The notes beneath the pieces were generated by a model, which saw nothing but the letters and a program-made list of their open reading frames with translations, searched no databases and was not told the origin of the DNA. The position numbers and the translations under genes are program-made. Positions 555-25,340 of a DNA stretch of 31,017 bases are shown piece by piece (the stretch's first letter is position 1; each line of letters starts with the position of its first letter). This DNA is from Nitrosopumilaceae archaeon (GTDB lineage: Archaea; Thermoproteota; Nitrososphaeria; Nitrososphaerales; Nitrosopumilaceae): NCBI GenBank assembly GCA_052389415.1, contig JBQTHX010000007.1, forward strand, positions 1 through 31,017, read 5' to 3'.

Positions 555-1345
555 TGGAACAAGCTGAAATAGGTATCTTTGGTGGAACAGGAATATACGA
601 TTCCGGTTTACTCAAGGAAGCCAAAGAGATTACTATAGATACACCATTTGGAAAAACATCCGATTCCATAACGGTTGGAGTTTTTAAAGGAAGAAATGTT
701 GCATTTATGCCAAGACATGGCAAAAAACACTCGATACCTCCTCATATGATCAATTTTAGAGCAAACATTTGGGCTTTCAAAGAAATGGGTATTAAAAGAA
801 TAATCGCACCATCCGCAGTTGGAAGTTTACAAGAAAAATTCGAACCGGGAGACATTGCTTTGCCATCACAGTTTGTTGATTTTACTAAATCAAGAAAAAC
901 ATCTTTTTTCGAAGGAGAAAAAGTGATTCATATCTCAGTGGCAGATCCTTTTTGCCCAGAACTTCAAGATGCTGTGATGAAGGTTACTGATAATTTACAT
1001 TTAAAAATACACAAGGATTGTACCTATGTTTGCATAGAAGGTCCGAGATTTTCAACTAGGGCAGAATCAAAATTCTACAAAAATGTATTAGGTGCTGACA
1101 TAATAGGCATGACCCTAATTCCAGAGTGCCAGCTTGCAAGGGAAGCACAGATTTGTTACGTCTCTATTTCAACTGTTACAGATTATGACGTTTGGGCTGA
1201 AAAACCAGTAACTGCAAAAGAGGTCATTGAAACCTTGACAAAAAATGTAGAAACTACAAAAAAGATCCTCGCATCACTGTTGGATTTTATTCCTACAGGA
1301 CGAAAATGCTCGTGTGAAAAAGCGTTAACAGAAGCCCAGTTCTAG
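554..1345 (+). CDS. mtnP: S-methyl-5'-thioadenosine phosphorylase (PNP/MTAP family)
   Basis: [42 protein letters not shown] motifs; coupled to apt through TAATG overlap. Confidence 0.94.
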
Positions 1346-20334: not shown

Positions 20335-20406
20335 GGTGAGGTGGCAGAGTGGCTATGCGTTCGCCTGCAGAGCGAATCTATAGGGGTTCGAATCCCTTCC
20401 TCACCT
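20335..20406 (+). tRNA. tRNA-Cys(GCA)
   Basis: Acceptor stem GGTGAGG/CCTCACC plus discriminator T; anticodon arm TTCGC-CTGCAGA-GCGAA; T loop GTTCGAATC; no intron, no encoded CCA. Confidence 0.96.
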
Positions 20407-20462: not shown

Positions 20463-22214
20463 TTGACAGAGAGAAGCAATGGTTTACTGGAATACATACC
20501 TGGCGCGCGCCCAATTTTATTAAGTCAAAACGGGCAACCATTAGAAGGATTTGTACAAAACATTCGTAATAGCATTAGAGAATATGCTGAGGATGCTTCA
20601 AGCGAAGTAGAGAAAGGGAATAATTTTTTGCAATGGGTCCTTACCAGAGTTTTTGAAGCAACAGAAGACGATGCTACAGATGCAATAGTAGATGGTGCTA
20701 ATGATTTAGGAATAGATGCCTACCTTCCAGTTGATTTTTCTGAAGGTACTGTACGATTGTTTCAATCAAAATATGGTTCGTCGCATTCCATTGAAGCGAT
20801 TGTTAAATTCAAGGAAGATGTAAAAAACCTTCAAATTCGAGACATTACTAAAATGCGCCCTGAACTTGCACATCTTGTTACCCAGATACGTGAGAAGAAC
20901 CTAAAGATAGAATGTGTTTATGTGACAGATCAAGAGGTCGAATATCAAAACAGCGAATCACTTGAAATTTGTGATATTGATTCAATTGTTCAAAAACTCT
21001 GGGATAGAATAAAAAAACCAGCTGCAGGAAAAAAGGCATCTATCAAGTTAGAAAGTAAGCTAAAATATCATAACACAATACTAGGTATTTTGAAGTTAAG
21101 AGAACTAACAACTTTTGTTACCAAAAATAGAGATTATGTCTTTGAATCAAACATTAGACAATGGATGCAGTTTAAGACCACAGTGAACAAGGGAATTCGA
21201 GAAACGCTTCAAGAATCTCCTGACAAATTCTTCTATTATAACAACGGGATAACCATTGTTGTAAGTGACTTTGAAGAACTTGAGGATAATTCGTTGATTT
21301 TGCATGCACCGCAGATCGTTAATGGAGCACAGACGTCAAACTCTATCTTAGATCATGCAAAGAGAACACACAATCTAGATGGCAGTATTACTGTCACAAT
21401 CATCAAAGCAGCAGATGAACGTGATCAAAACAATATAACAAAATATAGAAATTCACAAAACGCAGTACGGGGTAAAGATCTTGTCTCTTTGATGGATTTT
21501 CACAAATCTATAAAATCTCAGATGGAAAACTTTGGCTATTTTTATGAAATTCAGGCTGGCTCCTTTGACAGCAAGACAAAATCCCAACAAAGTGAGTTTA
21601 TTGGAGATGCAATATACAACAAATATCTTCCAGAAAATCACAAAAAAGTGATTGTTGCCAAAGACGCAATTCAAGCACTTGTAGCTGGGATTGAACAAAG
21701 ACCCACTGAATCATATAGCTCCCCAGCACAGTTTCTTCCACGAGGGAGTAAATATGATGAGGTCTTCAATGAAACACTCAAGGACGATTGTAGGCTTCTC
21801 TTGTACCCATATCTTGTAAAGGAATACGCAAAAAAAATTCTAAATTATGGCAAGAAGGGCGGTCATAAAACAAAAAGATATGGTACATTATTTTTTGTTG
21901 CCACATACTTTAAAATCTTACATGAGAAGATCTTATCAACAAAGTCTGATTTTAAAGAAGACATCTCAAAGCTAGAACCCATCTTTAAGAGTGTTAAGCT
22001 AAACCATAGAATTTTGAAATTAACTGACACAATTGTTACAAAATTCTTGGAAGACACTGTAGTAGATGATGAAATGGATGCGGCAAATACTTATCACAAT
22101 TTCTTTTCACACAATGTTTGGCAAGATTCCATGATACGAGTTATCGAAAAGAAAATAAAACAAGAAGAAGACGAAATTAATTCTATTAAAAAAATAGTTC
22201 AAGATCTTTTCTAA
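20463..22214 (+). CDS. AIPR-family protein (abortive infection phage resistance family) with N-terminal Mrr/PD-(D/E)xK-like domain
   Basis: DGANDLGIDA...LFQSKY N-terminal motif; AIPR core FESNIR, VNKGI.ETL, FFYYNNGITIV, QIVNGAQT, I.KYRNSQN.V...DL. Confidence 0.9.
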   Translation: MTERSNGLLEYIPGARPILLSQNGQPLEGFVQNIRNSIREYAEDASSEVEKGNNFLQWVLTRVFEATEDDATDAIVDGANDLGIDAYLPVDFSEGTVRLFQSKYGSSHSIEAIVKFKEDVKNLQIRDITKMRPELAHLVTQIREKNLKIECVYVTDQEVEYQNSESLEICDIDSIVQKLWDRIKKPAAGKKASIKLESKLKYHNTILGILKLRELTTFVTKNRDYVFESNIRQWMQFKTTVNKGIRETLQESPDKFFYYNNGITIVVSDFEELEDNSLILHAPQIVNGAQTSNSILDHAKRTHNLDGSITVTIIKAADERDQNNITKYRNSQNAVRGKDLVSLMDFHKSIKSQMENFGYFYEIQAGSFDSKTKSQQSEFIGDAIYNKYLPENHKKVIVAKDAIQALVAGIEQRPTESYSSPAQFLPRGSKYDEVFNETLKDDCRLLLYPYLVKEYAKKILNYGKKGGHKTKRYGTLFFVATYFKILHEKILSTKSDFKEDISKLEPIFKSVKLNHRILKLTDTIVTKFLEDTVVDDEMDAANTYHNFFSHNVWQDSMIRVIEKKIKQEEDEINSIKKIVQDLF

Positions 22215-22226
22215 ATTTGTTTATAC

Positions 22227-22295
22227 AAAAAGCGGCAGATGGGTGACCGATAGGTCTCTTGCAGGAGGTCCGCATCTAGCCATCCAGTCTACCGC
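22227..22295 (-). ncRNA. putative ~65-70 nt hairpin ncRNA
   Basis: 39/64 GC in an AT-rich intergenic region; long imperfect stem with four G-U pairs only on the minus strand; TTAAATA 24-30 nt upstream; T5 tract directly after the stem. Confidence 0.6.
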
Positions 22296-22363
22296 AAGAT
22301 TATTCGTATATGAAGTACTATTTAACATGATTTTTATAACGAAAATATTGGAACTGAATCAAA

Positions 22364-22528
22364 TTGGAAACTGATAATGAAAAATGTTCCATCTGCAATA
22401 AAACAATTGTAGAACACAAGTATTATCCAATGGATTCTTGGAATATTAATGGAGTTTTGTGTGGGACATGCTATTCCAAAAAGATTTCAGAATTTTATCC
22501 AGGCACACATGAAAGAACAGGACCTTAG
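22364..22528 (+). CDS. 54-aa CxxC...CxxC zinc-finger microprotein; not in ORF track
   Basis: TTG start: METDNEKCSICNKTIVEHKYYPMDSWNINGVLCGTCYSKKISEFYPGTHERTGP*; TTTATAA at 22333-22339; stop overlaps the stop of the convergent gene. Confidence 0.8.
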   Translation: METDNEKCSICNKTIVEHKYYPMDSWNINGVLCGTCYSKKISEFYPGTHERTGP

Positions 22529-23088
22529 TGTTCTAGAATCCATCCAGTTTCAATTTTATCTGTATCCAATTTTTCGCCAATACCAGTAGCATATCTCCAG
22601 ATAAAGGGGGCTTTTGTTTGCATTTTGACCTTTATTTTAGAAAGCGATTCTAATTCTTGATTTACGTTTGTAACAGAAGTTGCACAATTTTCACAAAACT
22701 TGCATTTGTTATCAAGTGTCACTGGTGAGGAATCAATCACTGGATAAGCCCTACACGCTAGAGGTCTATTTTTGTAAATTTTACAATTATAACCACCATG
22801 AGGTGACCTTTCCGTACTTTCAGTATCTAAAAATGGGCATGTGTTACCATTTGATTCTTTACCCATTAATTGATATGCAAGTATCTCAGTTGGTACATCA
22901 GATTTTTCATATGAAATGCCAATACGCGGTAGTATTACTATATCAAGGCGAAGATTTTTTGCATGATCTTCGATGATTTCTTTTTCTTCTGGAAGAATTA
23001 GAACTCCTACTTTACCAAACTTTTTTGTTGGATAATATTCTCGTTCTATGCAGCATTTTGAACAATCCTGTACGCAATTAAAATCCAT
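22525..23088 (-). CDS. YkgJ-family cysteine-cluster protein (CxxxCxxCC)
   Basis: FNCVQDCSKCC, CPFL, CKIY.NRPLACRAYP, CKFC. Confidence 0.88.
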   Translation of the reverse strand: MDFNCVQDCSKCCIEREYYPTKKFGKVGVLILPEEKEIIEDHAKNLRLDIVILPRIGISYEKSDVPTEILAYQLMGKESNGNTCPFLDTESTERSPHGGYNCKIYKNRPLACRAYPVIDSSPVTLDNKCKFCENCATSVTNVNQELESLSKIKVKMQTKAPFIWRYATGIGEKLDTDKIETGWILEH

Positions 23089-25266: not shown

Positions 25267-25340
25267 AGCCTCGAGCGGGATTCGATCCCGCGGCCTAACG
25301 CTTACGAGGCGTTCGCTCTACCAGGCTGAGCTATCGAGGC
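25267..25340 (-). tRNA. tRNA-Thr(CGT)
   Basis: Reverse complement GCCTCGA-TA-GCTC-AGCCTGGTA-GAGC-G-AACGC-CTCGTAA-GCGTT-AGGCC-GCGGG-ATCGAAT-CCCGC-TCGAGGC-T; full cloverleaf. Confidence 0.95.

Follow-up and report, generated by a model that had tools for sequence, protein, structure and literature searches.

The window analysed here is a 31,017-nucleotide (nt) stretch of DNA from a Nitrosopumilaceae archaeon (assembly GCA_052389415.1, contig JBQTHX010000007.1, positions 1 to 31,017 of the forward strand). It carries an open reading frame (ORF) for an AIPR protein on the plus strand (20463-22214; Pfam AIPR, 3e-56; PADLOC AbiU, 2e-46) and, convergent with it, a GC-rich island whose minus strand reads as a single hairpin. 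This report concerns that hairpin, a putative small RNA (sRNA) gene, and a distant zinc-ribbon gene whose translation the RNA probably controls. A preliminary description of the locus had proposed a discrete sRNA gene on the minus strand, perhaps an RNA partner of the AIPR protein. The features are as follows.

22232..22295, minus strand: putative small RNA gene, a 64-nt rod hairpin (nt 1 = 22295, nt 64 = 22232), from fold statistics, its single copy and full-length matches of the covariance models R1 and R2
22319..22325, minus strand: TATA-box-like TTAAATA, 23 nt upstream of the first stem base, from its conservation at fixed spacing
22319..22345, minus strand: probable divergent promoter block common to the sRNA and a 54-amino-acid (aa) zinc-ribbon ORF, with a second TATA-like box in the opposite direction, from near-invariance in 30 aligned loci
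22288..22295, minus strand: 5′ half of the basal clamp helix, with the conserved GGUAG, outside the antisense match, from pair conservation in alignment A3
22260..22282, minus strand: antisense segment, nt 14-36 (upper 5′ arm and loop), from co-folding, duplex energy and a register kept in 28 genomes
22260..22269, minus strand: invariant apical stretch, nt 27-36 (A, C or U, then CUCCUGCA), from column conservation in 67 distinct sequences
22240..22254, minus strand: 3′ arm, nt 42-56, target-like, pairing with the antisense arm through several G-U pairs and bulges, from the folded structures
22232..22239, minus strand: 3′ half of the basal clamp helix, from pair conservation in A3
22227..22231, minus strand: T5 tract, likely an archaeal termination signal in this genome, read directly

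The hairpin RNA and its range

On the minus strand, the 64 nt from 22295 to 22232 have a GC content of 0.61 and, folded within 111 nt of context, form a rod of -33.2 kcal/mol (z = -3.28) that none of 200 shuffles equalled, as against -26.3 kcal/mol for the plus strand (z = -1.07), where 32 of 200 shuffles were equally good. The minimum-energy structure of the minus strand contains four G-U pairs (nt 5-60, 16-50, 18-48 and 23-44). The island, its sequence, coordinates and rod fold are thus as first described, and reading the sequence also confirmed the TTAAATA upstream, the T5 after the stem and the 12 nt that separate the AIPR stop from the T tract. The hairpin occurs once in its 1.43 Mb genome, so it is not a dispersed repeat resembling repetitive extragenic palindromic (REP) sequences or miniature inverted-repeat transposable elements (MITE); the single match that R2 gives in each positive genome agrees with this. 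ARAGORN found no transfer RNA (tRNA) at the hairpin, the tRNAs of the window being tRNA-Cys (20335-20406, plus strand) and tRNA-Thr (25267-25340, minus strand) alone. No Rfam family was matched either, the search of 21700-22900 against Rfam 15 in E-value mode giving a lone chance-level overlap with Va-907 (11.3 bits against a gathering score of 45, E = 2.3), and inspection by eye found no C/D boxes, ACA box or internal pocket in the rod.

The conservation of the hairpin was examined in one family of ammonia-oxidising archaea, with 151 genomes from 27 genera. The family counts include three that are unpublished (G077, G092 and G093), G077 alone is in the class sample below, and G077 and G093 have rows in alignments A1 and A3; no claim rests solely on them, and the depositors' permission is needed before these data are published. 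BLAST against the 151 genomes found near-identical single copies in five genera, and in the aligned flanks the hairpin and an upstream block ending in TTAAATA are conserved while the 23-nt spacer between them varies. A first covariance model (R1), built from 21 sequences, reached further genera, and in the genera that it missed the DNA downstream of the AIPR orthologues was read, which gave the 67 distinct sequences of A3. The model built from A3 (R2), searched with Infernal's stricter filters, gives exactly one match in each of 120 of the 151 genomes, in 22 of the 27 genera; among the genomes searched there was no match in g5 (0/4), g7 (0/2), g8 (0/1), g10 (0/1) and g19 (0/9). In the class sample, 70 of 80 family genomes were positive, compared to none of 70 genomes from 11 other families.

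The stem shows covariation, for which the preliminary description had suggested a test in relatives. In A3, 88.8% of the cells are paired, compared to 30-48% when the 3′ partners are slid by one to three columns, and two-sided changes occur in 16 of the 24 stem pairs (150 cells). The covariation score is 0.373 against 0.226 for shuffled alignments, none of 500 shuffles reaching 0.373; kinship among the sequences inflates these figures, yet the slid controls retain that kinship and fail. The 220 G-U cells outnumber the 61 A-C cells, hence the minus strand of the window is the strand under selection, which bears out what the four G-U pairs had suggested. All 67 distinct sequences share the loop core CUCCUGCA (columns 29-36) unchanged; in column 28 of the apical stretch, 62 have C and 5 have U. 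Within the clamp, pairs 3-67 to 7-63 are near-invariant, so that GGUAG/CUACC is conserved in sequence as well as in pairing, while pairs 1-69 and 2-68 covary. To judge from these comparisons, the hairpin appears to be a real, conserved structured RNA gene that, in the genomes searched, is restricted to one family of ammonia-oxidising archaea.

An alternative apical hairpin of 4-5 base pairs (bp; nt 22-26 with nt 32-36) fits the variation at nt 24 and 25 in alignment A1; as a possible second conformation, it would leave half of the loop hidden. From the first, shallow alignment, RNAalifold had derived a small apical hairpin that departs from the rod, while the deeper alignment favours the rod; the alternative may form transiently.

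The TTAAATA is kept at fixed spacing in nearly all loci that were read, and an A/T peak at -29 to -25 before the starts of long ORFs in the same genome has the same geometry, which points to a transcription start at or near 22295. The block 22319-22345 is near-invariant in 30 aligned loci and would comprise two back-to-back promoters. No conserved ORF was found in the hairpin, relatives showing in the arm an AUG with a UAA right after it. The T run right after the stem is not conserved; many relatives have none until 25-40 nt further on, where the sequence is already antisense to the AIPR 3′ end. A simple bacterial-type promoter and terminator scan, which is uninformative for archaea, gave no terminator site at the hairpin. 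Fixed-spacing promoter, stem covariation and strand bias, together with the lack of an Rfam or tRNA match, thus uphold the proposal of a discrete minus-strand sRNA gene outside known families.

Complementarity to a distant zinc-ribbon gene

A 16-nt exact match to the hairpin in genomes of genera g6 and g11 led to a small gene on another contig of the window's genome (C67, minus strand; start codon at about 39656-39658). Its product is a protein of 80 aa with two CxxC pairs and a basic N-terminus, and the gene is present in 142 of the 151 genomes and in all 27 genera. The 5′ region, compared in 50 genomes, has TTG as the start, alternating with ATG and GTG among genomes, then codons for A-R-T/I-R-R-A-N-R, and in many genomes in-frame stops lie just upstream; the start codon was assigned from this switching and from the stops. 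With the start so placed, UGCAGGAGG and a 6-nt spacer make up a short leader that has a Shine-Dalgarno-like site. The U of UGCAGGAG is preceded, at about 21 nt, by a conserved TATA-like box inside a palindrome, so the target messenger RNA (mRNA) would begin at that U or within a few nt of it.

Several further observations concern this gene. In the window's own genome (locus L104 on C67, 817-1089, minus strand), mechanical ORF calling adds 10 codons, up to an upstream ATG, whereas comparison places the real start at the TTG at 1059-1057 of L104; in this genus the gene may therefore be annotated with too long a 5′ end, which would conceal the leader. The palindrome in the target promoter (TTAGAC, 5-6 nt, GATCTAA; L104 at about 1095-1125, minus strand) overlaps the TATA-like box in the hairpin-positive genera and looks like a transcription-factor operator, possibly for the zinc-ribbon protein itself. 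Searches for the protein's family gave sub-threshold zinc-ribbon matches only in Pfam and NCBIfam, weak zinc-finger and RPB9 matches in the PDB and a 'hypothetical protein' in the ESM Atlas, so that no family is assigned to it, and its AlphaFold model (mean predicted local distance difference test score of 49.7) was too poor for use.

The loop and 5′ arm of the hairpin are the reverse complement, over about 24 nt, of the leader, start codon and next two codons of this gene. In 28 genomes from 19 genera, all in one ungapped register, the match spans 24 consecutive target positions, beginning at the UGCAGGAG U and reaching coding position +9, with no fewer than 22 of the 28 genomes paired at each. 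One position outside either end, pairing drops to 4 and 2 of the 28 genomes, and it stops before the clamp helix (2/28 paired at k = 24). These limits, from the ribosome-binding site to +9, fit the expectation for a block of initiation. The energies are favourable as well. The sRNA-target duplexes have energies of -37 to -48 kcal/mol, with about -40 to -42 kcal/mol in the window's genome; in eight genomes the hairpin itself has -24.9 to -30.3 kcal/mol compared to -38.2 to -47.4 kcal/mol for the duplex, and in all 10 genomes that were co-folded the heteroduplex is preferred, by -11 to -23 kcal/mol. In the window's genome, the co-fold has 22 intermolecular pairs with one bulge, over nt 14-36 of the RNA (22282-22260), and an energy difference of -15.2 kcal/mol.

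The sRNA and the target also change together. Two-sided changes occur at seven positions of the match (k = 8, 10, 11, 12, 14, 15 and 19). An AUG start in place of UUG comes with the complementary base in the hairpin (start U/A matched by hairpin A/U), two versions of the leader spacer are mirrored in the 5′ arm, and a variant at a third codon position of the target is matched in the arm. None of 5000 permutations had as good a Watson-Crick count as the cognate pairs, for the 28 genomes and likewise for one genome per genus (n = 19), and the duplex energy is -42.6 kcal/mol for cognate pairs (n = 28) compared to -37.3 kcal/mol for pairs from different genera (n = 728), again with none of 5000 permutations as good. 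Base 28 of the loop was also compared with its target partner. Of the genomes with U in the loop, three have a target A, three a target G (a wobble pair) and one a target G with an adjacent mismatch, while two genomes with C in the loop have a target A (a mismatch); as this is overall only suggestive, it is not used as evidence.

A degenerate 26-nt pattern of the leader (at most two mismatches) was found in 119 of the 151 genomes, while the reversed control found none. Among the matches listed, many genomes have two, the leader itself and the RNA's reverse complement, whose 24 nt are identical and share lineage-specific variants; a further 39 matches lie beyond those listed, so the identical pairs are not an exhaustive count. 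The pattern occurs in 114 of the 120 hairpin-positive genomes, of which a few (G097, G133 and G104) have as their sole match the reverse complement of the RNA itself. The six positives without it are three incomplete assemblies that lack the target gene (G105, G140 and G150) and three genomes of genus g13 (G012, G037 and G059). Conversely, the pattern is absent in 26 of the 31 genomes without a hairpin match, where the target gene is often leaderless or differently led (g19, g7, g8, G110, G041 and G028) or, in g5, has a degenerate leader. As the hairpin-less groups follow phylogeny, independent losses of hairpin and leader are few, and from the genus pattern, which is not tree-based, we estimate about five loss events.

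A search of the window's genome for exact complements of the loop gave matches of 9-12 nt, for the most part within genes and no more than chance would give. In four of five genomes TGCAGGAGRT exceeds its reversed control by a factor of 4-30, but this motif spells common codons, so nothing is drawn from the excess. GGAG stands at -18 to -3 of 69 of 1243 crude ORF starts, compared to 32-39 in control windows, which makes Shine-Dalgarno-led genes a minority in this genome. A role as an anti-Shine-Dalgarno decoy for many mRNAs was rejected, since such genes are few and no other start region stood out. As to ribosomal RNA as a possible target, the assembly holds a 16S fragment alone, at a contig end.

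A probable trans-acting antisense RNA and its rivals

Conservation, RNA structure, strand, complementarity with its sharp limits, co-variation and co-occurrence with the target and the favourable energetics were computed in this analysis; what we infer is where transcription starts and ends, that the effect is repression and that the loop, as a toehold, acts first. Taken together, the hairpin is probably a trans-acting antisense sRNA that blocks translation initiation of the distant 80-aa zinc-ribbon gene. It would be transcribed from its own TTAAATA promoter as a hairpin of probably roughly 64-70 nt with three parts, namely the basal GGUAG clamp, an upper stem whose 5′ arm is antisense, and an invariant loop of 10-12 nt that resembles an anti-Shine-Dalgarno sequence. 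The target mRNA seems to start right at its Shine-Dalgarno-like UGCAGGAGG. The open loop, as a toehold, would first meet UGCAGGAG at the 5′-terminal ribosome-binding site, and pairing would then spread into the 5′ arm, displacing the weaker, G-U-rich 3′ arm, a degenerate copy of the target. The resulting duplex of about 24 bp would hide the ribosome-binding site and start codon, so that repression is the natural expectation; translation of the zinc-ribbon protein would be blocked and the mRNA possibly destabilised.

As the target-like 3′ arm pairs with the antisense arm through G-U pairs and bulges, it cages that arm. Whether the hairpin is in this sense a natural self-caged riboregulator, its antisense strand held inactive by an imperfect copy of the target and released only through the anti-Shine-Dalgarno-like loop toehold, is a more doubtful proposition, to which we give a minor share of the likelihood. 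Under it, temperature, a helicase or a protein bound to the GGUAG clamp could determine whether cage or target duplex prevails. The result would be a switch-like circuit on a single target, a zinc-ribbon regulator that may control its own promoter through the palindrome.

Several points weigh against an antisense block. Taken by itself, the window's genome offers an ordinary match (16 nt with one mismatch, BLAST E = 3.6), and it takes the comparison across genomes to make it convincing. The permutation figures overstate significance because related genomes are not independent, and the shared variants could come from gene conversion between the loci rather than from independent compensatory mutation. 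Five of the 31 hairpin-less genomes have the leader (G009, G024, G039, G063 and G080), three of them at least 98% complete. The three hairpin-positive g13 genomes, for their part, fail the leader pattern, the spacer of G012 being 1 nt shorter. Most of the antisense arm is paired inside the hairpin, so access needs strand displacement. The antisense model leaves the conserved GGUAG clamp unexplained, and expression, ends and abundance of the RNA are inferred from promoter conservation only.

The alternative that survives best, improbable as it is, holds that the hairpin acts mainly by binding protein, either titrating a regulator, perhaps the zinc-ribbon protein, by target mimicry or recruiting a protein through the clamp, the complementarity being a by-product of mimicry. 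It would account for a clamp that is conserved in sequence and lies outside the antisense match, the 3′ arm does resemble the target sequence, and the conserved palindrome in the target promoter suggests control at the protein level. However, conservation is best in the antisense strand and the loop, which are Watson-Crick precise to the target, whereas degeneracy, with its many G-U pairs and bulges, is found in the mimic arm. The match also extends from the ribosome-binding site to +9 and no further, which is what a block of initiation predicts.

The preliminary description had suggested the adjacent gene as a possible partner of the RNA. AIPR proteins are described, in the section of the source concerned, as having at their N-terminus a HEPN domain predicted to be an RNase (PMC3506569), which makes an RNA-partner role worth testing for the AbiU/AIPR family. 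The hairpin might then be an RNA partner, an antitoxin or a decoy substrate of the neighbouring protein, and in 46 of the 47 loci examined it adjoins the AIPR gene, convergent with it and few nt from its stop. By our own observation, the loop U-GCA-A also resembles a Cys anticodon loop, and tRNA-Cys flanks the AIPR gene. The whole neighbourhood is nevertheless syntenic (orf87, orf188, the 54-aa zinc-ribbon ORF, hairpin, AIPR, TatD), so the adjacency carries little weight, and the two features separate both ways. Three hairpin genomes have no AIPR match (G001, G012 and G019), in a fourth (G059) a tRNA and TatD occupy the place of AIPR, and in a fifth (G016) the hairpin stands beside a 65-residue AIPR remnant with stop codons; the hairpins of these five genomes are intact, with compensatory changes. 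In g5, AIPR is present in 4 of 4 genomes and the hairpin in none, and at the g5 loci L142 and L143, where AIPR and the zinc-ribbon ORF lie about 100 nt apart, R2 gave no match even with the filters off. The invariant loop and 5′ arm, moreover, are accounted for by another target. The partnership is therefore not supported, and we consider it very unlikely.

Still less likely is a structure of convergent gene ends that has no activity in trans, such as a terminator, a 3′-end stabiliser or a cis-antisense RNA to the AIPR 3′ end. The convergent gap and the T5 of this genome would suit it, and in relatives whose first T run lies within the AIPR 3′-end antisense, a read-through antisense RNA is possible. 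The hairpin, however, has its own conserved promoter, and no co-directional gene precedes it in the gap, the nearest minus-strand ORF ending at 22525 with a plus-strand ORF in between. Its loop is invariant, it persists without AIPR and it co-varies with a distant gene. The terminator element in particular was rejected, as there is no such upstream gene, the terminator scan found no site and the T run is not conserved, whereas the loop and arm are. Equally small is the chance that the complementarity is a historical leftover without a regulatory role, for instance of an inverted partial duplication of the target 5′ end kept by gene conversion, which would give the identical 24-nt tracts, derived variants included, at both loci; yet the tract is kept across 22 genera while its flanks diverge, its limits at the ribosome-binding site and +9 are sharp, independent stem covariation, an invariant loop and a conserved promoter surround it, and hairpin and leader were lost together several times. 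A microRNA-like guide precursor was rejected, and such a pathway is unsupported, since Pfam models of Piwi and RNase III found nothing in the window's genome (94% complete), with controls as expected.

The neighbouring genes gave some observations of their own. An AIPR-like gene occurs in 123 of the 151 genomes and 22 of the 27 genera, with 74-95% amino-acid identity in most genera, which exceeds that of its neighbours TatD (43-69%) and orf188 (34-78%); this member of the AIPR/AbiU family has the behaviour of a core gene and not of a defence gene that occurs sporadically. It directly follows tRNA-Cys, and in AIPR-less genomes the hairpin and the tRNA are face to face, which points to the tRNA as the site of an insertion or deletion long ago. 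A second AIPR paralogue in the window's genome (C59:30102-31823, minus strand) is 44% identical, has one in-frame TAA and adjoins a tRNA gene whose 3′ acceptor strand shares 10 nt with the hairpin loop, which we treat as chance. The 54-aa zinc-ribbon ORF (22364-22528, plus strand; CxxC...CxxC; weak DUF4428 match, E = 0.007) is divergent from the sRNA and probably leaderless, as a conserved TATA-like box precedes its TTG by about 25 nt. It adjoins the hairpin at every examined locus except that of G012 and persists in the hairpin-less g5; a comparison of its product with the sRNA target protein found no similarity. Between this ORF and orf188 lies a YkgJ-like CxxCxxCC gene (22525-23088, minus strand), limited to g1, g6, g9 and g11, the genera nearest to the window; the otherwise syntenic locus lacks it elsewhere.

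Relation to known RNA regulators

Full-text literature searches, with metatranscriptome supplementary tables (e.g. PMC5069720) outside their reach, found no published description of this hairpin RNA or of sRNAs of ammonia-oxidising archaea. A 2014 review states, in the part concerned, that no sRNA study existed for Thaumarchaeota (PMC4152357), and a term search of a 2026 review of environmental sRNAs finds none of the terms used for ammonia-oxidising archaea (PMC13414033). As far as these searches reach, the hairpin RNA is previously undescribed, though the kind of regulator is well known, and the self-caged riboregulator, if true, would be the first sRNA-target pair defined in these organisms. 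Those of the hairpin's family rank with the most abundant microbes of sea and soil. With a covariance model, a defined range and a specific mRNA target that co-evolves with it, this RNA family gives a hypothesis that is directly testable. The finding would also imply that a long near-perfect antisense match is sustainable between unlinked chromosomal loci, and it would mark the uncharacterised 80-aa zinc-ribbon protein, found in all 27 genera sampled, as the product of a tightly regulated gene that is worth study.

Like the type III toxin-antitoxin RNAs (ToxI) and possible AbiU/AIPR partners, the hairpin is a small structured RNA beside an abortive-infection-type gene with a predicted RNase domain. 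Unlike ToxI, it is a single hairpin and not a repeat array, it is convergent and not upstream in an operon, and hairpin and AIPR occur without each other. A closer parallel within the archaea is sRNA162 of Methanosarcina mazei, a trans-encoded sRNA for which the passages dealing with it describe masking of the ribosome-binding site and start codon of MM2441, with repression (PMC4152357). As there, an archaeal RNA, putatively transcribed on its own, would act in trans by base-pairing over the start codon and ribosome-binding site of a single mRNA, the product of which is a small regulator-like protein, and repression is predicted. As sRNA162 is described in those passages, the two have no sequence or structural relation: the hairpin has no Rfam match and a different family range, is known here from sequence alone, and has some 24 nt of near-perfect antisense caged in its own stem in place of a single-stranded linker.

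Stem-loop antisense RNAs that pair loop first are known from bacteria in CopA/CopT, RNA-OUT/RNA-IN and Sok/hok, and these are encoded opposite their targets on plasmids and transposons, so that complementarity is automatic. The hairpin would share with them an exposed loop as the first contact, as proposed here, and a long near-perfect pairing over the initiation region near the mRNA 5′ end. Here, by contrast, the chromosome has the RNA at one locus and its target at another, which complete genomes place more than 1 Mb away, so the match must be maintained by selection or gene conversion. Synthetic toehold-gated riboregulators combine a hairpin-sequestered sequence, a single-stranded toehold and a more stable partner duplex. 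The hairpin differs from these in being natural and in that the regulator, instead of the mRNA, would be caged, with an order of events suggested by computed energies; if the self-caged version were true, it would be an archaeal counterpart of engineered toehold switches.

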